Of a stretch of 64,000 nt of DNA, positions 1-12,750 are shown piece by piece (positions within the stretch are counted from its first letter, which is position 1; each line of letters opens with the position of its first letter). A program made the position numbers and the translations under genes. Under the pieces are notes generated by a model. It searched no databases, was not told the origin of the DNA, and saw nothing but the letters and a program-made list of their open reading frames with translations. The stretch lies in assembly GCA_964569045.1 (NCBI GenBank), contig CAZMSR010000003.1, positions 23,492 to 87,491 of the forward strand, given 5' to 3'. The stretch is from an uncultured Gammaproteobacteria bacterium. Lineage in GTDB: Bacteria > Patescibacteriota > Patescibacteriia > Patescibacteriales > BS150m-G62.

Positions 1-1703
1 AAATTTTTACAACAAGACCGGATACATTATTTGGTGCAACTTTTATGGTTGTATGTCCTGAGCATAGATTGATTAGTAAAAATAAATTAAAAATTAAGAA
101 TTACAATGAAGTTCTTGATTATATAAATAGTGCTAAAAATAAAAGTGATATTGATAGGACAGATTTAAATAAAGAAAAAACCGGGGTTATTATAGACGGA
201 GTGACGGCTATTAATCCTGTGAATAAAAAAAGAATTCCAGTTTTTATAGCAGATTATGTTTTGCCCGGTTATGGAACAGGAGCAATAATGGCTGTGCCTG
301 GGCATGATGAGCGAGATTTTGAATTTGCTAAAAAGTATAAGATAGATATTAAAGAAGTTGTAAGTTCAAGTGGTCGAAAGAGTGCTAAATTGTTAAATGC
401 TTATACAGAAGAAGGAATCTCCATTAATTCTGAGTTACTTAACGGATTAAAAACAAAAGATGCAAAAAATAAAATTATTGAATGTTTAGAAAAGAAAAAG
501 GTGGGAAGTAAAAAGATTAATTATAAGTTACGTGATTGGTGTGTTTCACGTCAACGTTATTGGGGGCCACCGATTCCAATGATAAAGTGCGAGTCTTGTG
601 GTTGGCTACCTGTTTTAAAGGAAAAATTGCCAATTATATTACCTGAGATGGATGATTTTTTGCCAGATGGAACAGGAAAAGGACCTTTAAATAAGATTGA
701 TGATTTTGTTTATGTTGATTGTTTTAAATGTGGTAGCAAAGCTTGTCGTGAAACTGATGTTTCTGACCCTTTTGTTGACTCTAGTTGGTATTTTTTAAGG
801 TATTTATCAGTAGAGTTTAATCGAAAGGCGCTTGATAAAGAAAGGTTGGAGCAATGGATGCCTGTCGATATGTATATTGGAGGAAAAGAACATTCAGTTT
901 TGCATTTACTTTATTCTAGATTTGTGACAATGGTTATGCATGATTTAGGTTATATAAAAAATGATGAGCCATTTGGGCAATTTAGGGCTCATGGTTTAGT
1001 AGTAAAAAACGGTGCTAAAATGAGTAAGTCAAAAGGCAATGTTGTTAATCCTGATGAGTATATAAATAAATTCGGTGCAGATACAGTTAGGATGTACTTA
1101 ATGTTTATGGGTGATATGCGACAAGGTGGAGATTGGAGAGATTTAGGTGTGTCTGGAATGCATCGTTTTTTAAAACGTGTTTATGCCTTACTTGATAAAA
1201 TAGCTCCATTAGACCAGCTTGCCGATAGAGGAGAAGACGATGATTTTAAGCGATTACTGCACAAGACAATAAAAGGAGTGAAGATTGATATGGAAAATTT
1301 AAAATATAATACAGCAATATCAAAATTAATGGTACTTGTTAATGCAATGTCAAAAACTGGATGCACTCGTGGTGAAATGGGGGATTTAGCAGTGATGCTT
1401 GCTTCATTTACCCCTCATCTATCTGAAGAAGTGTGGGGAAAATTAAAATTGGTAAAGGGTAGTATATTTGAGCAGGTATGGCCAGAATATGATGAGGCCT
1501 TAACTCAAGAAAAAATAATTGAGCTTGTTATTCAGGTGAATGGAAAAAACAGAGCAAAGCAAGAAGTTTTGCCAGATATTATGGAGCACGAGGCTAAAAA
1601 AATTGCTTTGGAGAATTCAAAAATTAAAGAATTGATTGGTGAAAAAAAAGTTTTGAAGATAATTTTTGTGCCTGGAAAATTAGTTAATATTGTTGTTAAA
1701 TAA
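1..1703 (+). CDS. leuS: leucyl-tRNA synthetase, C-terminal portion (5' end lies outside window)
   Basis: Translation shows class I aaRS features: CP1/editing-like region, a KMSKS-type motif (MSKSKGN) and a C-terminal anticodon-binding region. The ORF is open to the window start. Confidence 0.9.
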   Translation, partial: IFTTRPDTLFGATFMVVCPEHRLISKNKLKIKNYNEVLDYINSAKNKSDIDRTDLNKEKTGVIIDGVTAINPVNKKRIPVFIADYVLPGYGTGAIMAVPGHDERDFEFAKKYKIDIKEVVSSSGRKSAKLLNAYTEEGISINSELLNGLKTKDAKNKIIECLEKKKVGSKKINYKLRDWCVSRQRYWGPPIPMIKCESCGWLPVLKEKLPIILPEMDDFLPDGTGKGPLNKIDDFVYVDCFKCGSKACRETDVSDPFVDSSWYFLRYLSVEFNRKALDKERLEQWMPVDMYIGGKEHSVLHLLYSRFVTMVMHDLGYIKNDEPFGQFRAHGLVVKNGAKMSKSKGNVVNPDEYINKFGADTVRMYLMFMGDMRQGGDWRDLGVSGMHRFLKRVYALLDKIAPLDQLADRGEDDDFKRLLHKTIKGVKIDMENLKYNTAISKLMVLVNAMSKTGCTRGEMGDLAVMLASFTPHLSEEVWGKLKLVKGSIFEQVWPEYDEALTQEKIIELVIQVNGKNRAKQEVLPDIMEHEAKKIALENSKIKELIGEKKVLKIIFVPGKLVNIVVK

Positions 1704-1756
1704 TAGTATTAAATAATTTAGTGGTATGGTCCGTTATTGGGCCATTTTGGTTAAAT

Positions 1757-2326
1757 ATGGAGAATATTTTTTGTTTAGAGTATTTAGATAGAAGAGTTGA
1801 ATATGAATTAAGAAAAAGTAGCAAAGCTAGAAATATTAGAATTTCTATTGAGGGTTCCGGGTTGGTTAGTGTTACTTTACCCAAAATATTACCAGATATT
1901 TTTGCACATAGGTTTATAAAAGAAAAGGCTGACTGGATTTTAAAAAAAATTAATGAACTTGATTTAGAAAATAGATTTGTTTTGCCAAAAATAACAAGAA
2001 ATGAATATAAAAAATATAGATTACAAGCACATGAACTAGTATTAGGTAAAATAGAAAAATATAATAAATACTATAATTTTTTTTATAATAATATTTCTAT
2101 AAAAGATCAAAAAACTCGTTGGGGAAGTTGCTCTTCTAATAGAAATTTAAATTTTAATTATAAATTGTTGTTTTTAAAAGATTATTTAGTTGATTATGTG
2201 GTAGTGCATGAACTTTGTCACTTAAAAGAAATGAATCATTCTAAAGATTTTTGGAATTTAGTTAGTGAGTGCATTGGTGAGTATAAGAAGATTAGAAAAG
2301 AGTTAAAGGAGGTTAGAATTGAATAG
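1757..2326 (+). CDS. YgjP/DUF45-like zinc metallohydrolase (HExxH)
   Basis: HELCH (HExxH) motif followed by SKDFW, typical of the YgjP/DUF45 family. The ORF is open from 1721; the start was placed at the Met beginning MENIFCLEYLD by family length. Confidence 0.65.
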   Translation: MENIFCLEYLDRRVEYELRKSSKARNIRISIEGSGLVSVTLPKILPDIFAHRFIKEKADWILKKINELDLENRFVLPKITRNEYKKYRLQAHELVLGKIEKYNKYYNFFYNNISIKDQKTRWGSCSSNRNLNFNYKLLFLKDYLVDYVVVHELCHLKEMNHSKDFWNLVSECIGEYKKIRKELKEVRIE

Positions 2327-2411
2327 TTTTTGTTATAGAAAGTATTAACTGTAGAAGATGAAGTATACTGGATAAAGTGATATTGCGTTCAAGTGAGTAT
2401 GAGATTGTCTG

Positions 2412-2493
2412 TGCCGATGGTGGGAGTCGAACCCACATGTCTTGCGACACGCGATTTTGAATCGCGCGTGTATACCAATTCCACCACATCGGC
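2412..2493 (-). tRNA. tRNA-Leu (anticodon CAA)
   Basis: Reverse complement folds as a cloverleaf: acceptor GCCGATG/CATCGGC, anticodon arm CGCGA-TTCAAAA-TCGCG, long variable hairpin TGTCGCAAGACAT, T arm GTGGG-TTCGACT-CCCAC, discriminator A. CCA is not encoded. Confidence 0.85.
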
Positions 2494-2674
2494 TATTTTG
2501 CTGATTATAATTATATTATAATAAAAATGTATTAGATGTCAAAGTTGAAGGAGGGGAGTGTAAATGATATAATGTGTACAAAATATTAAAATAAAAAAAT
2601 TATTCAAAGAGCTTAATTGTTTAACTAATATAAGTGTACACTTAATTAATTTTAACAATTATTATTTTTTATAT

Positions 2675-5281
2675 ATGCCTATATTAAAGTCTTCTAGTAG
2701 AAGGGCTGCAAATAAACCAGCCTCCAGAAGAATAAATGCTTCATCATTTAAACAAGCAAGGGCTGGAGCAAGATTGAGAATGTCAGTAAAATCTAACTCT
2801 GCAAAAGGATTTAATGGAGTGTTGGATAAGTTGATATTTGGTTTAATATTGTTAAACGTTATTTTAACTCCTATTTTTATAACTGGGATTGTAACTCAAG
2901 GTTTGGGTTTTGAGAAAATGATACTTTTTTCAACTTTAACTATGATTGGAGTATTATTATGGATTATTAAAGGTTTTTTAAGTGGAAGTATGAAATTGAA
3001 ATGTACGCCACTGGATTGGTTTTTGGCAATATTCATGTTTTTTGTTTTTATCGCATCTATTTTTTCTGTTAGTGTAAAGGATAGTATTATTGGTCCTTAT
3101 GGATCTTTGTCAAAAGGCTTTGGCGCTCTTTTAGTCTATGTATTATTTTATTATTTAGTTGTAAATAATATTACGAAGGATAGAATGAAAGTGTTATTTT
3201 GGTCTTTGATTTCTTCTTTTGGGTTACTTTTATTCTATGCGTTGTTACAAATATTTGGAATTTTTTTGTTGCCATTTAATTTTACTCAATTAAATAGTTT
3301 TAATCCGGTTGGGTCTTTTTCAGCTTTAACTATGCTTTGCGGGGTTCTTTTGCCACTTATTGTAATTGTGATATCTAAAACTGATACTTTATTATCTAGT
3401 GGTAGTTTTTTAAAAGCCATAGTTGTAAGAGTTGGTTTTGGTTTGTTTTTACTGGTTGACTTGTTGCTTTTATTTATTTTGGATGGGTTTGCTTATTGGC
3501 CACTTATTATTATTTCAATGGTTGCGGTAATTGTTTTGTCATTTGTTAGAATTATTAGTATTGAAAAAAAGTATCTTGGGCTGCCTGTTGTAATTTTAAC
3601 ATGCGTTGTATTAATGAGTTCTTTTAATATTTATGTTGATAAACATAATCAAAAAATGGTTGAAAAATACAGTAATAATACGCAAGAATTACAAAAAAAT
3701 GTTAAAAAAAGATTGGATTTTGCTTCAGTATTTAATATTGATCAATTGCCAGCAGAAGTGAGTTTGAGTCGATCCGCATCTTGGCAGATAGCAAAAGAGA
3801 GTACTTTTGAAAATCCCATAATTGGATCTGGACCAGCTACTTATTATTATGCTTTTAATAAATACAAAGGAACAGATTTTAATCAGACAAATTTATGGAA
3901 TATTGAATTTGATAATGCTACAAGTTTGTATTTAGAGTTGTTCTCTACATTAGGAGTGCTTGGATTTTTATCCTTTGTTTTGTTGACTATATTTGCTGTT
4001 GTTTCTTTAGTGAAAAAAATACTTAAAGAAGAAGAGGCGTCTTTAAAAGTGATTTTAGTAGGGTTGACAATGAGTGTTATTATGATAATTCTCTATGCAT
4101 TATTATTTGGTTTTAATTCAATTTTAATTTTATTGTCAGTTTTAATTTCTGTTTTGTCTTGTGCATATGTTTATTGCACAAGTGATAATGATGTTGAGGT
4201 TAGCTTATTGTTTAATAAGTCGTCTAAGGTAAGTTCAAAAATCTTGGCCGGTGTTTTAGTTTTTGTTGGAATAATTTCATTTATTGTGTTGGTGAAAGGA
4301 GTTAAAATATATGTAGCAGATTGCTATGCAAAGAAATCCATGGCATCTTCCGATCTTGAGGAAAGAGTTCAGTTACTTGAAAAAGCTGCAAAATTAGCTC
4401 CATTTCAAGACAGTTATTATGTTGCTTTATCTAATTATTATGTTTCGTTAGCCAATCAAAGTGCATCAAGTGGTGACAAGAATAAAGCTAGTGCTTATTT
4501 AGAGAAAAGTATTGAATTAGGGAAAATGGCAGTTAAGTTAGCGCCAAATAAATCTAGTAATCATGAATCTTTAGCTCTTTTATATGAAAATGCATTTTAT
4601 TATGACCAAGGTGCTTTAGAATATGCTGAAAAAAGTTATCAAATAGTTATAGAACTGGAGCCAGATAGTCCAACACCTTATTTAAGATTAGGTTTAATAA
4701 ATATGACAAAAGCAAGAATGGAAAGTGCGGTAGATGAAAAGAAGTATTATGTAAATAAAGCAATAAAAATGTATGATGAGTCTATTAAAAGAAAATCTAA
4801 TTTGGCTTCTTCTCATTATGGCAAATCAATTGCTTATGAAACACTCGGTGATTTAAATATTGCTATACAAAGTTTAACTAATGCTACTATTCTTAACCAA
4901 AATGTAGGATTTATATTTGAGCTTGGTCGGTTGTATTTTAATAGAGGTGTGTTAGTGCCGGCATTAGTGCAAGGAAAAGATGCTGTTGAAGATTTAGTTG
5001 GTAAGGAAAATGGTGTTAATATGGAGCTTAGTGTTAAGCAAGTTCAGGTTGCAGAAGGTGTAATGAAAAAAAATTCAGATTTAGCATCAGCAGAGCAATT
5101 ATTTTTAAGTATACTGTTAAATAATCAAAATCATGCAAATGCAAGATATTCATTAGCTTTGTTGTATAATAAAGTTGGTGATACAGAAAAAGCAAGTATA
5201 ATGGTTAAATCACTTCTTAAAATTATAAAAGACGAAAATCAAAAAGAAGCAATCCGTAAACAGTTTCCTGGATTATATTAA
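2675..5281 (+). CDS. polytopic membrane protein (O-antigen ligase/Wzy-like) with C-terminal TPR-like repeat region
   Basis: About 12 hydrophobic helices in the first ~550 aa, then an Ala/Leu/Tyr-rich helical repeat region (TPR-like). The true start may be the internal Met (MSVKS...), which is preceded by GGAG. Confidence 0.5.
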   Translation: MPILKSSSRRAANKPASRRINASSFKQARAGARLRMSVKSNSAKGFNGVLDKLIFGLILLNVILTPIFITGIVTQGLGFEKMILFSTLTMIGVLLWIIKGFLSGSMKLKCTPLDWFLAIFMFFVFIASIFSVSVKDSIIGPYGSLSKGFGALLVYVLFYYLVVNNITKDRMKVLFWSLISSFGLLLFYALLQIFGIFLLPFNFTQLNSFNPVGSFSALTMLCGVLLPLIVIVISKTDTLLSSGSFLKAIVVRVGFGLFLLVDLLLLFILDGFAYWPLIIISMVAVIVLSFVRIISIEKKYLGLPVVILTCVVLMSSFNIYVDKHNQKMVEKYSNNTQELQKNVKKRLDFASVFNIDQLPAEVSLSRSASWQIAKESTFENPIIGSGPATYYYAFNKYKGTDFNQTNLWNIEFDNATSLYLELFSTLGVLGFLSFVLLTIFAVVSLVKKILKEEEASLKVILVGLTMSVIMIILYALLFGFNSILILLSVLISVLSCAYVYCTSDNDVEVSLLFNKSSKVSSKILAGVLVFVGIISFIVLVKGVKIYVADCYAKKSMASSDLEERVQLLEKAAKLAPFQDSYYVALSNYYVSLANQSASSGDKNKASAYLEKSIELGKMAVKLAPNKSSNHESLALLYENAFYYDQGALEYAEKSYQIVIELEPDSPTPYLRLGLINMTKARMESAVDEKKYYVNKAIKMYDESIKRKSNLASSHYGKSIAYETLGDLNIAIQSLTNATILNQNVGFIFELGRLYFNRGVLVPALVQGKDAVEDLVGKENGVNMELSVKQVQVAEGVMKKNSDLASAEQLFLSILLNNQNHANARYSLALLYNKVGDTEKASIMVKSLLKIIKDENQKEAIRKQFPGLY

Positions 5282-6457: not shown

Positions 6458-6826
6458 TTATCTGGTGTTAAGTATTTGCATAATTTCAGTTGGGAGTTCA
6501 TTTGAATTTATATTTTTTACATCAAGGTTATTAACCATATTTTGAAGCGCATTTTGCAAGATATCATTACTACCAGTTACTCCGCCGCCAATGCCAAACA
6601 AATTTTTATAATCTTCTAGTAAATTACTAATAATTGGTGGTAAATATAATATACCTAAAATAATTGGCACAATAATAATAATTAATTTAATTATACCCAT
6701 TACTTCAGATATTATTGTAAATCTTCTAATTTTTTTGGTAGTTTCATTTATCTCTTCTGTTAATTCGTGGATGTGTTTGGTTAATTTAGCGTTTTGACGT
6801 ATTATTTTTTTTATATCTTCGTCCAT
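6458..6826 (-). CDS. hypothetical small membrane protein
   Basis: 122-aa ORF with one strongly hydrophobic helix (IIKLIIIIVPIILGILYL). Co-oriented with and downstream of nrdG. Confidence 0.4.
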   Translation of the reverse strand: MDEDIKKIIRQNAKLTKHIHELTEEINETTKKIRRFTIISEVMGIIKLIIIIVPIILGILYLPPIISNLLEDYKNLFGIGGGVTGSNDILQNALQNMVNNLDVKNINSNELPTEIMQILNTR

Positions 6827-6838
6827 TGTTTTTTTAAA

Positions 6839-7555
6839 TTATCTTAATATGCAATTTTTTACATATAAATTACCAATTTTTATTAAATCTTGCAGTTTTT
6901 TTTCACTAAATTGTTTTTCATTTTTAAATTTTAAATTTATTAATTCAGTGTTATTTTTAAAATTTTGAATATACCATAATTTTGCACCTTTAATTAGTTT
7001 CCCCATTTCATGAAAATCATCTATGGTGTGCGCTTTTGGTAAAGTGGTAGTTCTGAATTCATATGGAATTTGTCCCTTTAATAATATTGTAATGCTTTTT
7101 TTGATTTCGTTCAAATTGTTTATTGAGTTAGTTGTGCAAGAGTATTTGCTAAGCGGTGCTTTAATATCCATTGCAATATAATCAATAAGATTTCTATTTA
7201 TTAGTTTATTGATCATAGTCGAATTGCTGCCATTTGAGTCAAGTTTTATTTTGAATCCAATTTGCTTTATTTTTTTTATAAAGCTTGGTAAGTCATTGTG
7301 GATTGTTGGCTCACCGCCTGATATTACAATTGCATCTATTTTTTTGGCCCTATTTTTAAGAAATTCAAAAAGATCACCCTCACTGATACTTTGAGGATGA
7401 TCTTTATTATTTGCCTTACCAAGAGTATTTGGCACGACAAGCATTGGATTGTAACAATGGTGGCATCTGAAATTGCATCCTTGTGTGAAAATAATAGCTG
7501 CAAGTTCTCCCGGGTAATCAATTAAAGTTAATTTATCAATTCCGCCAATAATCAT
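6839..7555 (-). CDS. nrdG: anaerobic ribonucleoside-triphosphate reductase activating protein (radical SAM)
   Basis: CNFRCHHCYNP radical-SAM cysteine motif near the N-terminus. Lies in the nrdD operon context. Confidence 0.85.
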   Translation of the reverse strand: MIIGGIDKLTLIDYPGELAAIIFTQGCNFRCHHCYNPMLVVPNTLGKANNKDHPQSISEGDLFEFLKNRAKKIDAIVISGGEPTIHNDLPSFIKKIKQIGFKIKLDSNGSNSTMINKLINRNLIDYIAMDIKAPLSKYSCTTNSINNLNEIKKSITILLKGQIPYEFRTTTLPKAHTIDDFHEMGKLIKGAKLWYIQNFKNNTELINLKFKNEKQFSEKKLQDLIKIGNLYVKNCILR

Positions 7556-7578: not shown

Positions 7579-7722
7579 TTAATCTCCAATTTGTTTGTCA
7601 TAGGTGCTTCTATCTTCAAATTCACTTTGTTTTCCTTTATTCCAGCATCTAGTTCCGGTATACCAGCCGCATACTCTTGAATAAACAGTGCATTCTTGAC
7701 GTTTTATTTTGATTGGTGACAT
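7579..7722 (-). CDS. stand-alone glycyl-radical domain of NrdD (47 aa), encoded separately from the NrdD body
   Basis: MSPIKIKRQECTVYSRVCGWYTGTRCWNKGKQSEFEDRSTYDKQIGD. By my recollection of the E. coli sequence, its RVCGW...NKGKQSEF matches the C-terminal glycyl-radical segment of E. coli NrdD (RVCGY...NAGKQEEV). AAGGAGG sits 5 nt upstream of the ATG. Confidence 0.6.
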   Translation of the reverse strand: MSPIKIKRQECTVYSRVCGWYTGTRCWNKGKQSEFEDRSTYDKQIGD

Positions 7723-7789
7723 TATTTCCTCCTTCTAGATATAGCTTTTATGAGCAAATTTGCTTTAAAAGATATGTCTAGTTATTTAT

Positions 7790-9841
7790 TTAATTAAAAT
7801 TATTAATTGATTGATTTGTATTTTCTGTATACCCGATTTCAATATCGCATTTTGGGCAATATTTATGTTCTCCGGCTAAGTATCCATGCTTAGGGCAGAT
7901 GCTGAATGTTGGTGTTATTGTGTAATATGGTAATCTGTAATTGTATGCGATTTTTTTTACTAGTTTTTTGCATGCGTCAGCATTAGTAACTCTTTCTCCA
8001 ATAAATCCATGTAATACAGTGCCGCCTGTGTATTTTGTTTGTAAATCATCCTGTAATTCAAGAGCGCTAAAAATATCATCTGTGTATCCAACTGGTAGAT
8101 GTGTGGAATTTGTGTAGTAGGGCGGTACTTGTTCTGTGTTTACTTTTTTTTCGTTTGCAACAACAATATCAGAAAAAAGTTCCTTGTCTTTTTTTGCAAA
8201 TCTGTATGTAGCGCCTTCTGCCGGCGAGGCCTCAAGATTGTATAAATTATCTGTATCGTTTTGAAAATCCATTAATTTTTCTCGCATAAATTCTAGTACT
8301 TTTGTTGCAAATTTTTTTCCTTCTTCTGTTGAAATATTTTTATCAATAAGATTAATTGCTCCTTCATTAACTCCGTTAATTCCAATTGTATTAAAATGAT
8401 TTTTCCAGTATGATCCAAATCTTTTTTTTATGTCAACTAAATAGTGTCTGGAGTAGGGATACAAACCTTCTTCTGTGTATCTTTCTATTACTTTTCTTTT
8501 TATTTCAAGGCTATCTTTGGCTGTTTTCATCAATAATTCGAGTTTTTCTAAGTATTCTTCTTGATTTTTAGATATGTAGCCTAATCTTGCCCCATTAATT
8601 GTTACAACACCTAGCGAACCGGTTAGTGGGTTTGCACCAAAAAGCCCACCGCCTCTTTTTTTTAATTCTCTGTTGTCTAATCTTAATCTGCAGCACATAC
8701 TTCTTGCATCATCTCTATCCATATCTGAATTAATAAAATTGGAAAAATAAGGAATCCCATATTTTGCTGTCATTTCCCATGCTGGCTTAAGAGCAGGTGA
8801 GTCCCAGTCAAAATTTTTATCAATATTATATGTTGGTATAGGAAAGGCAAAAATTCTTCCGGTTGAATCACCCTCTATCATCACTTCTGCTAAGCATTTA
8901 TTAAATAAATTCATTTCGTTTTGAAAATCTTTGTATTTCTCTGATTTTATTTCACCACCAATTATTATATTTTCTTCTCCGGTTTGTTTTGACGGTGTAA
9001 CATCAAGAGTTATATTAGTAAACGGTGTTTGAAATCCAACTCTTGTAGGTACGTTCATATTAAAAAGAAATTCTTGAAGAGCTTGCTTTACCTCTGTTTC
9101 ATTTAGATTGTCATACTGAATAAACGGTGCCAGGTATGTGTCAAAGTTTGAAAATGCTTGAGCGCCGGCTGCTTCGCCTTGCATTGTGTATAGAAAATTT
9201 ACAATTTGACCTAGTGCACTTCTAAAATGCTTTGGGGCTTTACTTTGTACTTTTTCTTTAACCCCACCAAATCCTTTGGTTAATAAATCTCGTAAATCCC
9301 ATCCGCAACAATATGGTGCTAATAAGCCAAGATCATGAATATGAAAATCACCGCAAATGTGAGAGTTCCTGATATTTTCCGGATAAAGCTTGTTAAGCCA
9401 GTATCGAGCTGAAATTGATGAGGCAACATAATTATTTAATCCTTGAACTGAAAAATTCATGTTTGAATTTTCCTGCAATCTCCAATCATTTTTGCCTAGA
9501 TAGTCCTGCATTAATTTTTCTTCTGTGCTTTGCAAATCACGTAGTTGTCTGTGTTGATCTCTGTAAAGAATATATGCTTTGGCTATTTTAATGGCTTTGT
9601 TTGAGATTAATACTTCTTCGACTATATCTTGAATTTCTTCAACTGCTGGAATTGAACGAGTATGAAATTTTAAATTTATTGCTTTTATTGCTTTATTACT
9701 AAGTTCTTTGGCTAATTTTTCGTTTGGTTTACCGGTGGCTTCGGCAGCTTTTTGAATAGCATTAGTAATTTTATCTTGATTAAAGTCAGCAATTTCATCA
9801 GAGCGTTTTCTTATTTTAGTAATTGTTTTTATTGTTGACAT
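7790..9841 (-). CDS. nrdD: anaerobic ribonucleoside-triphosphate reductase (class III), lacking the glycyl-radical tail
   Basis: N-terminal ATP-cone and a C-terminal Cys/His zinc-ribbon segment (CPKH...CPKC). Stops 67 nt before the small glycyl-radical ORF. Followed by nrdG. Confidence 0.9.
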   Translation of the reverse strand: MSTIKTITKIRKRSDEIADFNQDKITNAIQKAAEATGKPNEKLAKELSNKAIKAINLKFHTRSIPAVEEIQDIVEEVLISNKAIKIAKAYILYRDQHRQLRDLQSTEEKLMQDYLGKNDWRLQENSNMNFSVQGLNNYVASSISARYWLNKLYPENIRNSHICGDFHIHDLGLLAPYCCGWDLRDLLTKGFGGVKEKVQSKAPKHFRSALGQIVNFLYTMQGEAAGAQAFSNFDTYLAPFIQYDNLNETEVKQALQEFLFNMNVPTRVGFQTPFTNITLDVTPSKQTGEENIIIGGEIKSEKYKDFQNEMNLFNKCLAEVMIEGDSTGRIFAFPIPTYNIDKNFDWDSPALKPAWEMTAKYGIPYFSNFINSDMDRDDARSMCCRLRLDNRELKKRGGGLFGANPLTGSLGVVTINGARLGYISKNQEEYLEKLELLMKTAKDSLEIKRKVIERYTEEGLYPYSRHYLVDIKKRFGSYWKNHFNTIGINGVNEGAINLIDKNISTEEGKKFATKVLEFMREKLMDFQNDTDNLYNLEASPAEGATYRFAKKDKELFSDIVVANEKKVNTEQVPPYYTNSTHLPVGYTDDIFSALELQDDLQTKYTGGTVLHGFIGERVTNADACKKLVKKIAYNYRLPYYTITPTFSICPKHGYLAGEHKYCPKCDIEIGYTENTNQSINNFN

Positions 9842-9866: not shown

Positions 9867-10346
9867 CTAAGTTTTTTTAGTAGGTGTATTTTTTTTGTTT
9901 TTTATTAGTTTGTCTAATTCTTGGGCAAATTCTTCTATGTCTTCAAATGATTGATAAACTGAAGCAAACCTAATGTATGCAACTTTATCAATTTTTTTTA
10001 GCTGGTTCATTATTATTTTTCCAATTTTTTCAGTTGAAACTTCATTTTTATTATTTGCTTGAATATCACGCTCTATTGAATTGATTAATTTTTTAAAATT
10101 ATTTTCTGTTATTGGTCGTTTTTCAAGAGCTTTTTTAAGACCTTTGATTAATTTGTCTCGTGAATAAGGCTCTTTTTTATTATTACTTTTTAATATTGTT
10201 AGATCTAAAATTTCCATTTCTTCGTAGGTCGAGTATCTAAAATTACATTTTAAACATTCTCTTCTTCTTCGAATAGAAAATCCATCACCTGCTGCGCGTG
10301 AATCCACTACTTTTGTGTCATTGTGATGACAAATTGGACAATTCAT
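9867..10346 (-). CDS. nrdR: transcriptional repressor NrdR
   Basis: N-terminal zinc ribbon (MNCPICHHND...CLKC) followed by an ATP-cone. Lies directly upstream of nrdD. Confidence 0.9.
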   Translation of the reverse strand: MNCPICHHNDTKVVDSRAAGDGFSIRRRRECLKCNFRYSTYEEMEILDLTILKSNNKKEPYSRDKLIKGLKKALEKRPITENNFKKLINSIERDIQANNKNEVSTEKIGKIIMNQLKKIDKVAYIRFASVYQSFEDIEEFAQELDKLIKNKKNTPTKKT

Positions 10347-10358
10347 GTATATTAGTTA

Positions 10359-10407
10359 GCACTATATCTTGTGTAGTATGAATAAACTTATCTACAACAT
10401 ATTGTGT
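10359..10407. promoter_or_regulatory. tandem NrdR-box-like palindromes upstream of nrdR-nrdD-nrdG
   Basis: GCACTATATCTTGTGT (10359-10374) and CTACAACATATTGTGT (10392-10407) match the acaCwAtATaTwGtgt consensus at 14/16 and 13/16 positions. Centre-to-centre spacing is 33 bp. Confidence 0.55.
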
Positions 10408-10949
10408 TAATAACTTAATTATATCATTCGTAAATTTAGTGTCAAACAATGAAAAATAATGCCTTATGATAGAGAAAAATAAGAGAAATATTTTGTTTTA
10501 AGTTTGAAAATTTAGTAAAGTTTGTGGATAAAAAATATAATATAATAGATGATGATTTTTTAAATAAATAAAAAATCGTAGTTATTTTAAAATTCTACAT
10601 AATTTAATTGATTTTTTATTGTATTCTATCTTAATATTCTATCCTAATATTCTGTATACTATATATTAAAAATAAACCTAATACAGAATTATAAATATTT
10701 ACATACTTAAAAGAAGATTTTGCTAAACGATTTAAAATTGAAGAATATATGACAGTATAAACCGAAGGGCAAGAGGTAAAAGAGAATTATTTAAGGCTCG
10801 AACCTCACGAAATAGGCATTATTAAAGCACAAAACAGGGCTATTAACCCTGCTTGTTCTAATGAGTAGGTCGAACTGGTTGATACTCGAACCTGTTTTGA
10901 GATGCTAGTTAAATTAATTAGTGAAATAAAACTCAATTTACATTAAAAA

Positions 10950-12497: not shown

Positions 12498-12677
12498 AAT
12501 TTTTGAATGCTTAGACGTTTTTGGTAAATTTTTGCGTCAGATTTGCGATATTCGTTTAGCCTGTATTTAATTACGTCTTGTTTTATTTTCTAGTCTTCCT
12601 TGAATTTTTATTTAAACGTTTAAGTTTTAAATTATTTATAGATAAATGTGAAGAGTATGATTTTTGACTATTAAATG

Positions 12678-12750
12678 TAGGTGTAGATGGAATTGAACCA
12701 TCGACCCCCGCGTTATAAGCGCGGTGCTCTAACCCCTGAGCTATACACCC
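12678..12750 (-). tRNA. tRNA-Ile (anticodon TAT/UAU)
   Basis: Reverse complement: GGGTGTA-TA-GCTCAGGGGTTAGAGC-A-CCGCG-CTTATAA-CGCGG-GGGTC-GATGG-TTCAATT-CCATC-TACACCT-A. The anticodon loop gives UAU. The acceptor stem has a G1-U72 wobble pair. Confidence 0.7.

Follow-up and report, generated by a model that had tools for sequence, protein, structure and literature searches.

Glycyl radical enzymes are generally viewed as single chains, with the radical loop tethered to the barrel. The locus analysed here raised the question of whether a class III ribonucleotide reductase (RNR), NrdD, may be encoded in two pieces, a large body and a separate small peptide bearing the radical site. The first-pass annotation, made from the sequence alone, had claimed that the nrdD ORF ends soon after its Zn ribbon without a radical motif, and that an AT-rich spacer of 67 nt is followed by a 47-aa ORF corresponding to the glycyl-radical segment of NrdD. 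Both claims held, the former at the coordinates listed below and the latter by Pfam, NCBIfam NF006126 and a profile search against PDB. In the window, which is the whole 64-kb stretch of DNA that was analysed, the genes were arranged as a minus-strand operon in the order nrdR, nrdD body, 67-nt spacer, 47-aa ORF, nrdG and 122-aa ORF, with the following features.

10418..10445, minus strand: putative sigma-70-type promoter 5' of nrdR (TTGACA, 16 nt, TG-TATAAT; 12/12 matches)
10359..10407, minus strand: two NrdR-box-like palindromes, directly 3' of the -10 box, read from the sequence
9867..10346, minus strand: nrdR, 159 aa, transcriptional repressor of RNR operons (TIGR00244, E 2.4e-59; Zn_ribbon_NrdR and ATP-cone)
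7790..9841, minus strand: nrdD body, 683 aa (Pfam NRDD and ATP-cone; NF006126, 1015 bits)
7723..7789, minus strand: AT-rich spacer, 67 nt, with stops in the relevant frames and a hairpin inside
7579..7722, minus strand: 47-aa ORF, detached NrdD glycyl-radical segment (Pfam NRDD, 531-562 of 562)
6839..7555, minus strand: nrdG, 238 aa, radical-SAM activase (TIGR02495 NrdG2, E 5e-57; cluster motif CNFRCHHC)
6458..6826, minus strand: 122-aa ORF containing a hydrophobic segment; it closes the conserved cluster and has homologues after nrdG

The promoter function upstream of nrdR was inferred from the consensus match only. The two NrdR-box-like palindromes, ACACAATATGTTGTAG (10407..10392) and ACACAAGATATAGTGC (10374..10359), were separated by a linker of 17 nt, near the spacing of 15-16 bp described for NrdR boxes (PMC13584703). 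The nrdG gene started 23 nt 3' of the small ORF, and the two genes adjoined each other in almost all related loci. Of the 25 Patescibacteria-type loci tested, 16 had a homologue of the 122-aa ORF (27-57% identity) 3' of nrdG, and no Pfam match was on record for this ORF.

The nrdD body ended with ...CPKHGYLAGEHKYCPKCDIEIGYTENTNQSINNFN and a TAA stop, 18 residues past the Zn ribbon. It matched positions 1-528 of the 562 in the Pfam NRDD profile (E 1e-178), the Pfam ATP-cone (E 7e-18), and positions 2-652 of the 684 in NF006126, with 1015 bits against a cut-off of 548. The recognizable parts were the ATP-cone, the alpha/beta barrel, the NxN flap (ENSNMN), the finger loop SMCCR (C383/C384) and the Zn ribbon composed of C649, H652, C662 and C665. 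No glycyl-radical motif was found in the 683 residues by regular expression, and the profile match stopped at 528 of 562. The finger loop with its two cysteines, C649, C662 and C665 were invariant across 40 fused and 20 split NrdDs, with H652 nearly so, and the NxN flap was invariant in the split bodies together with the fused NrdDs. The body thus appears catalytically intact, as inferred from these invariant residues with their roles assigned from the literature; catalysis itself is an inference. The criteria for class III NrdD were fulfilled as regards family profiles, finger-loop cysteines, Zn ribbon and adjoining NrdG, but not as regards a C-terminal RVxG(Y/F) motif carried on one and the same chain. 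The tail of the body past the Zn ribbon was variable in both length (0-66 residues) and sequence across lineages, and some C-terminal motifs were kept across the split lineages. An intein was present in the L093 body.

The 47-aa ORF (7722..7579) was translated as MSPIKIKRQECTVYSRVCGWYTGTRCWNKGKQSEFEDRSTYDKQIGD. G19 (codon 7668..7666), within YSRVCGW and followed by WNKGKQSEFEDR, is predicted to be the radical glycine; the residue after this glycine is Trp in this lineage versus the usual Tyr. The ORF matched positions 531-562 of the 562 in Pfam NRDD (E 1.8e-8) and positions 649-683 of the 684 in NF006126. NRDD was the only Pfam family matched at E <= 0.1, and the PFL-type Gly_radical family (PF01228) was not matched. 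The body and the peptide together span the full NrdD profile exactly, and the profile match of the two ORFs is far past chance. When a profile of 50 such peptides was searched against PDB, G19 aligned with Gly621, the radical residue of T. maritima NrdD, and also with the RITGYL loop of P. copri NrdD; phmmer with the single peptide gave no match in PDB, and the 50-sequence profile was needed. With 47 residues, its own ATG and YSRVCGW...WNKGK, the product meets the description of a small stand-alone protein with a glycyl-radical loop, and no other glycyl-radical motif was found in the 64-kb window. The ATG was followed by a conserved 8-residue leader (MSPIKxKRQ). Such peptides are at present annotated as hypothetical proteins or under the name of the full enzyme.

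AF2 modelling of the concatenated body and peptide gave a pLDDT of 86 and a pTM of 0.81. The peptide was modelled as a helix and a beta-hairpin, the tip of which was formed by G19 (pLDDT 71-85), and the top Foldseek matches of the model were all NrdD structures, with the overall fold being that of NrdD. In a first run without an alignment over the peptide, the pLDDT of the peptide was below 50. As the model was built as a forced single chain with a peptide alignment derived from fused homologues, it is not independent evidence of docking.

The same split was found in approximately 24 diverged Patescibacteria lineages, namely four metagenomic lineages and 20 GTDB species genomes, and the nrdR-body-peptide-nrdG cluster was conserved among the Patescibacteria loci. 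All of the 120 nearest NrdD homologues (72-100% identity) lacked the radical motif. The divergence within the split set was deep, as the identity of the peptides went down to 50%. The distant relatives from Firmicutes and Bathyarchaeia (~48-61% identity) were fused, reading CPxCG-xx-C-EVYSRVVGY, and the junction in 120 fused relatives was CPxCG-xx-C-EVYSRVVGYYRPV. The split therefore corresponds to an insertion of the tail, stop, spacer, ATG and MSPIKxKRQ, at a site that follows the Zn ribbon and precedes the Gly loop. The first-pass annotation had proposed a search for the same arrangement in other genomes of the lineage; the arrangement found there was split, not a single fused gene.

It had also named an indel fusing both ORFs as the observation that would refute the split, and this was excluded. 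Within the spacer (7789..7723, 67 nt), the nrdD frame was interrupted by three stops and the small-ORF frame by a TAG 15 nt 5' of the ATG. Because stops are present in both relevant frames, no single indel can fuse the two ORFs. Four independent assemblies covered the junction and were identical to the window across it: L011 and L014 aligned without a mismatch or gap along the entire operon, as did L015 and L016 from mid-nrdD onward. The same-species scaffolds L012 and L013 had N-runs and gaps elsewhere in nrdD.

The Shine-Dalgarno sequence AAGGAGG (7734..7728), lying 5 nt before the ATG at 7722, had been put forward in the first-pass annotation as an argument for independent translation rather than a frameshift. 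Its presence and spacing held here, and such a sequence was present for only ~4 of the 37 genes in the window. As an argument it is lineage-specific, since most relatives have no Shine-Dalgarno sequence before the small ORF. Independent translation was supported by other evidence, namely the split in every close relative, the invariant ATG, the variable spacer and frame, and the substitution pattern. The spacer varied across lineages from 13 to 216 nt with a relative frame of 0, 1 or 2, and in-frame stops were located 1-40 codons 5' of the small-ORF ATG depending on the lineage. In L025, the two ORFs were in frame and parted by a single stop. Apart from an AT-rich block, the spacers of different lineages were not alignable. 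The spacer in the window held no ORF and a hairpin (7781..7735, -13.6 kcal/mol, z -2.1) that ended just 5' of AAGGAGG, a hairpin being located just 5' of the small ORF in most lineages; no Rfam family was detected in the spacer region at E <= 1. The ATG of the small ORF was invariant in 25 of 25 lineages. The dN/dS of the small ORF was 0-0.13, and some lineage pairs showed 8-15 synonymous versus 0 non-synonymous changes. These results demonstrated that the frame of the peptide and its ATG are under strong purifying selection at the protein level. Across the 25 lineages, both AGY and TCN codons were used for Ser2 and all six Arg codons were used for Arg16 and Arg38. Conservation of the 5' end of the peptide at the RNA level was ruled out by this free variation at synonymous sites. 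The varying spacer and frame, invariant ATG, purifying selection and fused distant relatives together argue for separate translation of the peptide.

We thus consider it likely that the locus encodes an obligate two-gene class III RNR, composed of the 683-aa body and the separately translated 47-aa radical peptide, while the mechanism is inferred and no experiment was carried out. Only 64 kb of the genome was visible, and a second, fused nrdD elsewhere is not strictly excluded. The dependence of NTP reduction on a glycyl radical, the location of that radical on the peptide, and complementation in trans are all inferred. In the proposed mechanism, NrdG would abstract a hydrogen atom from G19 while the peptide is free or while it is docked, and the peptide hairpin would then enter the barrel opposite the SMCCR finger loop, as does the tethered loop in fused NrdDs. 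The peptide would accordingly act in trans as an exchangeable, radical-bearing micro-subunit. The radical glycine is known to be buried, and activation requires an outward swing of the C-terminal domain (PMC4493059); high mobility, up to complete disorder, has been described for the glycyl radical domain (PMC11226230). That an autonomous radical domain can be activated and complement a glycyl radical enzyme in trans is known from YfiD (PMC13450708). In enzymes of this kind, the radical glycine is the site of cleavage by oxygen. One may speculate that upon oxygen damage only the 5-kDa peptide would be sacrificed and the large body re-armed, an adaptive rationale that remains untested.

The closest system for comparison is the single-chain NrdD (T. 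maritima 4COI/4U3E, P. copri 8P23 and phage T4 1H7A; NrdDh-type, SCCR finger loop). It shares with the split enzyme the ATP-cone, barrel, NxN flap, SMCCR, CPxH...CPxC Zn ribbon and RVxG(Y/W)...WNxGK motif, as well as the adjoining NrdG activase and NrdR control. In contrast, the radical loop here is on a separate polypeptide with the break exactly between the Zn ribbon and the Gly loop, and the new C-terminal tail of the body and the conserved 8-residue leader of the peptide are additional differences.

The first-pass annotation had likened the peptide to GrcA/YfiD, and this analogy held in part. GrcA/YfiD and T4 Y06I are likewise small stand-alone proteins with a glycyl-radical loop, presumably activated by the activase of the parent enzyme and completing the barrel in trans (PMC13450708). 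The autonomy is alike, but neither the homology to the PFL-type domain nor the spare role held: GrcA shares homology with the radical domain of PFL (Pfam Gly_radical), whereas the present peptide matches NRDD only, and GrcA is a spare for an enzyme with its own radical domain, whereas the body here has none and the peptide would therefore be obligatory. GrcA is approximately 14 kDa, compared with approximately 5 kDa for the peptide.

Other split RNRs differ in what is detached. The class II RNR NrdJa/NrdJb of Pseudomonas aeruginosa is likewise encoded by two adjacent genes whose products must associate (PMC4520616; PMC9669993); however, it is B12-dependent, and its large C-terminal piece carries redox and Zn-finger functions without a radical site. 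NrdA of the Aeromonas phage Aeh1 is reported to be functional as two ORFs with a mobile homing endonuclease gene between them (Friedrich et al., PNAS 2007), whereas the spacer here is a non-coding stretch of 13-216 nt. The likeness to the alpha/beta arrangement of class I RNR is conceptual, in that a stable radical resides on a subunit apart from the catalytic barrel. The class I radical carrier is unrelated, being the ferritin-like NrdB with a Tyr or metal radical and not a 47-aa glycyl peptide, and it relies on long-range radical transfer, whereas the peptide here would insert directly into the barrel.

Similar orphan peptides were common in viral contigs, without nrdD or nrdG within 4 kb, and it is possible that the peptide acts as a portable module there. 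Only three GenBank phage records matched the peptide, with PhiF1 being fused, and phiCTP1, found via a search with the body, also had a fused NrdD.

Among the alternative explanations, the one that survived best is that the split, although the peptide does work in trans, is a neutral scar, left for example by a lost mobile element, and kept by constructive neutral evolution without any advantage in repair or regulation. In its favour, split RNRs that merely reassemble are known, such as NrdJa/NrdJb (PMC4520616), and exchange or repair is nowhere demonstrated by sequence. Against it, the split has persisted over very deep divergence (to 50% peptide identity), the leader MSPIKxKRQ and some C-terminal motifs of the body are conserved, and the orphan viral peptides suggest a portable module. 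None of these points is decisive, and we regard the neutral explanation as unlikely.

The three explanations that follow were judged very unlikely. In the first, the peptide is a true spare for a full-length NrdD encoded elsewhere, and the body has another or a radical-independent role. Only 64 kb of the genome being visible leaves room for this reading. However, the window has one glycyl-radical motif, in almost all related loci the peptide gene has the body on one side and nrdG on the other, all of the 120 nearest NrdDs are truncated, and the residues that are invariant in fused NrdDs are retained in the body.

In the second, programmed recoding by read-through, frameshifting or ribosomal bypass of the T4 gene 60 type yields a fused NrdD. 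The hairpin just 5' of the small ORF in most lineages and the single stop between the in-frame ORFs of L025 are compatible with recoding. Against it stand the gap of 13-216 nt in any of the three relative frames with in-frame stops 1-40 codons 5' of the ATG, the invariant ATG and eight following residues conserved at the protein level, the body tails varying in length and sequence, and the lack of an evident conserved pair of take-off and landing sites.

In the third, the two pieces are rejoined at the RNA level, by a self-splicing spacer intron, or at the protein level, by a split intein. The nrdD genes often host introns and inteins, as the L093 body does an intein, and the peptide profile gave weak, non-significant matches to the Npu DnaE N-intein (E 0.16-0.3). 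However, no Rfam match was obtained in the region, and the spacers of 13-216 nt are not alignable except for the AT-rich block. Neither the tail of 0-66 residues nor the 8-residue leader is long enough for a HINT fold, and the logic of a terminal HN plus nucleophile is absent. A split intein was rejected, as the flanking segments are too short and the DnaE-intein matches look like chance.

Finally, a sequencing or assembly artefact or a recent pseudogene, in which a frameshift or nonsense mutation interrupts a normal fused nrdD, is all but excluded: split ORFs are a common artefact of metagenome assemblies and L012 and L013 have N-runs and gaps elsewhere in nrdD, but several spacer stops occupy both relevant frames, four independent assemblies agree with the window at the junction, ~24 diverged lineages and 120/120 nearest homologues are split, and the dN/dS of the small ORF is 0-0.13.

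The first-pass annotation had put this arrangement forward as seemingly undescribed for class III RNRs, in agreement with the searchable literature: no description of a split or spare-part class III RNR was found in the literature searched. According to a 2026 review, no spare-part glycyl-radical proteins are known outside the formate lyases (pyruvate formate-lyase), and whether other glycyl radical enzymes have spare parts is an open question (PMC13450708). A split NrdD across a very large bacterial radiation would offer a direct and testable answer to that question. The peptide would represent a minimal natural substrate of NrdG, useful for the study of activation and radical transfer. The finding also calls for a correction of annotation, since thousands of NrdD entries lack a part without this being indicated. 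The orphan peptides of viral contigs may point to a new, very small kind of phage auxiliary gene.

Beyond the two-gene enzyme itself, a bolder reading is that the class III RNRs of Patescibacteria and some phages use the radical loop as an exchangeable, consumable micro-subunit, which NrdG would charge and which would be swapped into the body after oxygen damage, while phages would carry the ~150-nt peptide gene alone to re-arm or boost the host reductase. We put this forward tentatively, as slightly less likely than not. The split suggests a cheap way for ultra-small anaerobes to cope with oxygen damage to an essential enzyme, and if the bolder reading is true, this would be the first spare-part or two-subunit glycyl radical enzyme system beyond pyruvate formate-lyase.

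The nrd genes of the window formed a compact cluster on the minus strand, in which the glycyl-radical segment was encoded apart from the rest of NrdD.

10346..9867, minus strand: nrdR, the first gene of the cluster
9841..7790, minus strand: nrdD body, 683 aa, ending with a TAA stop
between the nrdD body and the small ORF, minus strand: AT-rich spacer of 67 nt
7722..7579, minus strand: small ORF, 47 aa
7555..6839, minus strand: nrdG
6826..6458, minus strand: 122-aa ORF 3' of nrdG; hydrophobic segment present, known domains absent

The Pfam profile NRDD (562 positions) was covered at 1-528 by the body and at 531-562 by the small ORF (E 1.8e-8), and NCBIfam NF006126 (684 positions) at 2-652 and 649-683, respectively, indicating that the two ORFs were exactly complementary parts of one NrdD. 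The small ORF carried the only glycyl-radical motif in the window. With a profile of 50 such peptides, its predicted radical glycine, G19, was aligned with the radical Gly621 loop (YMRIVGYL) of T. maritima NrdD and with its counterpart in the P. copri enzyme (RITGYL). G19 was followed by Trp (GWY; codons G19-W20 at 7668-7663), as in the closest relatives; the usual residue here is Tyr, described in P. copri NrdD as highly conserved and hydrogen-bonded to the active-site network.

Of the 25 Patescibacteria-type loci tested, 16 had a homologue of the 122-aa ORF (27-57% identity) in this place after nrdG, and the ORF may therefore be a member of the operon. Upstream of nrdR, a perfect extended sigma-70 promoter was followed by two NrdR-box-like palindromes (10359-10445, minus strand), raising the possibility, from sequence alone, that NrdR autoregulates the whole cluster. 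A tRNA-Ile gene with anticodon TAT (UAU) was also found (12677-12750, minus strand); most bacteria read AUA by a lysidine-modified CAU tRNA instead.

An assembly artefact as the cause of the split was rejected. In the nrdD frame the spacer was closed by three stops, and a TAG lay 15 nt 5' of the small-ORF ATG, so that no single indel can fuse the ORFs. L011 and L014, assemblies of the same species, showed no base difference from the window over the entire 3.9-kb operon, and two others (L015 and L016) were identical from mid-nrdD on; all four, among sources comprising JGI, ENA and Logan, covered the junction. The only differences in two ENA scaffolds of the same species (L012 and L013) were N-runs in other parts of the operon. 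These N-runs and gaps of 24-87 nt, inside nrdD and nrdG, broke the called genes and are scaffolding artefacts without relation to the junction. The view of the first-pass annotation that the split was not an assembly frameshift was thus upheld, and the 1- or 2-nt indel that would have refuted it failed to appear in these assemblies.

The split was conserved. When the peptide served as query in a word-indexed search, four clusters of 44-47 aa were recovered, and their contigs all carried nrdR, a 683-708-aa nrdD body, the small ORF, nrdG and a ~120-aa ORF. Scanning one genome per GTDB species gave 20 loci, all from Patescibacteria, Parcubacteria or Falkowbacteria MAGs (some with "Gammaproteobacteria" in the record title), and the same split in every one, as the first-pass annotation had proposed to check. 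The scan pattern, PIK[IT]KRQE, was biased toward the MSPIK-type leader. Independently of it, every one of the body's 120 nearest homologues (72-100% identity) stopped after the Zn ribbon without a radical motif, by which the alternative outcome, fusion in all homologous genomes, was not met; the split was also present in L039, a lineage of higher GC content that lacks the MSPIK leader. All 120 relatives of a fused NrdD were fused, with the junction CPxCG-xx-C-EVYSRVVGYYRPV; these shared 48-61% identity with the window body and came from Moorellales, Ammonifex, Desulforudis and Bathyarchaeia. Compared with them, the split locus had gained, precisely where the Zn ribbon would otherwise run on toward the Gly loop, a C-terminal tail on the body with its stop, then a non-coding spacer, and then the ATG and leader MSPIKxKRQ of the peptide.

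Conservation of the small ORF merely at the RNA level was excluded, since its synonymous sites varied freely (Ser2 by AGY and TCN, Pro3 by four codons, Arg16 and Arg38 by all six). A pseudogene was excluded by this variation, by an ATG unchanged in 25/25 lineages and by an overall dN/dS of 0-0.13, several pairs showing 8-15 synonymous against 0 non-synonymous differences in Nei-Gojobori counts. A conserved recoding device joining the two ORFs was incompatible with the invariant ATG, with spacers of 13-216 nt, with a relative frame of 0, 1 or 2 depending on lineage, and with in-frame stops 1-40 codons 5' of the ATG. Together these comparisons argue strongly that the small ORF is translated as a stand-alone peptide, in agreement with the earlier claim of independent translation. 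The Shine-Dalgarno sequence invoked for that claim was present (AAGGAGG at 7734..7728, 5 nt ahead of the ATG) and stood out, as only ~4 of the 37 window genes had an SD core of any kind; as evidence it held only in part, because it was peculiar to the window lineage and most relatives lacked one.

No Rfam family matched this region. A hairpin ending a few nucleotides 5' of the small-ORF start was seen in most lineages (window 7735-7781, minus strand; the loci L023, L027, L031, L035 and others), with negative z-scores in 12/12 spacers tested, down to -6.3. An AT-rich block resembling AAATAAATAAAAATTAATA..AAATTTAG was common to many spacers; such elements are perhaps an internal promoter or stabilise the mRNA. 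At one locus (L025 3965-4000), body and peptide lay in one frame separated by a single stop and 11 sense codons, where read-through, if any, would yield a fused protein.

The body appeared competent in its conserved residues. The NxN flap and the SMCCR finger-loop cysteines (C383/C384) were shared with 40 fused enzymes, in comparison with which the Zn ligands C649, C662 and C665 were invariant and H652 nearly so, and nrdG encoded a normal NrdG2-type activase. An AF2 model of concatenated body and peptide (pLDDT 86, pTM 0.81) predicted for the peptide, at pLDDT 71-85, a beta-hairpin of residues 695-700 and 703-706 that has G19 (residue 702) as its tip and leads into a helix; every top Foldseek match was an NrdD structure. 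As the chain was artificially fused and the alignment, which included fused homologues, had only these as its source over the peptide, the model indicates compatibility only.

Among the 120 nearest truncated bodies, ~25 (including P0166, P0169, P0171-P0175, P0178, P0188, P0189, P0230 and P0263) carried a terminal Cys pair, CxxC, CC or CxC, reminiscent of the redox-shuttle tails in RNRs of classes I and II. Such a tail may have been able to evolve because the C-terminus is free. Many long-tailed bodies carried ER(D/S/N)(I/L)I(Q/E)A(I/M)A after a variable linker, as the last 9 residues before the stop (loci L005, L009, L019-L024, L027-L036 and L038), conceivably a site where the peptide or NrdG docks. 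The window body had neither feature. Unusually long bodies and fused relatives also occurred, namely that of the viral contig L093, P0324 (1121 aa) and P0291 (1029 aa). An intein-associated endonuclease domain of the LAGLIDADG type (PF14528) was present in P0324, and an intein with an HNT-type end in the L093 body (257-3937), showing that nrdD in these groups is often targeted by mobile elements; P0291 was assessed on length alone.

When the peptide profile was searched exhaustively with HMMER, 2795 cluster representatives were obtained at E <= 1e-3, and 149 of the best 150 were proteins of 43-149 aa starting with M, V or L. In IMG/VR, the motif lay within an open frame of <200 codons in 77 of the 80 best loci (L041-L120), and nrdD and nrdG were both absent within ~4 kb in 74 of the 80, only the flanks being covered. 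NrdD-type glycyl-radical peptides were thus common on viral contigs (e.g. L042 4001-4138, L047 4001-4123 and L063 4001-4138), near genes including those for portal, Mu-F and lysozyme. Several carried a leader like that of Patescibacteria, M(S/A)PIKxERQEC, and some of these contigs may accordingly belong to phages of Patescibacteria. Two large viral contigs (L089 and L093) had a split nrdD in other gene orders. A second architecture comprised stand-alone proteins of 90-150 aa with their own CxxC...CxxC Zn ribbon and glycyl-radical loop: P0077, P0089, P0094, P0154, L040 389-736 (no adjacent nrdD on this 1-kb contig) and L121 3686-4120 of ANMV-1 virus (KP703175), whose protein AJP62049.1 is annotated under the full enzyme's name.

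By analogy, the split system would work like NrdD with a GrcA-like autonomous cofactor, yet neither comparison fits fully: the single-chain criterion of NrdD is not satisfied, and the peptide, without Gly_radical homology, is no member of the GrcA family and would be obligatory, whereas GrcA is a spare. The GrcA/YfiD likeness drawn in the first-pass annotation held for the autonomy of the peptide but not for homology or the role as a spare. With the split class II NrdJa/NrdJb, the only likeness is the two genes. No split class III RNR was described in the searchable literature, in line with the earlier statement; subscription-only papers lay outside, and a prior description is not fully excluded. 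A 2026 review knows spare parts only for formate lyases (PMC13450708).

The window locus likely encodes a genuine class III RNR in two pieces, conserved and apparently not described before, its action in trans being inferred. In NrdD the radical Gly lies buried in the barrel, at a loop tip, and the entire C-terminal domain has to move to give NrdG access (PMC4493059); the glycyl radical domain of P. copri NrdD is highly dynamic and sometimes entirely disordered (PMC11226230), and the free radical domain YfiD/GrcA can be activated and complements pyruvate formate-lyase in trans (PMC13450708). These observations make a detached loop plausible. NrdG would charge G19 on the 47-aa peptide, the charged peptide would dock in the barrel of the body, and the pair would then behave as class III RNRs normally do. 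One conceivable gain, which remains speculation, is that oxygen-induced backbone scission would cost the peptide alone.
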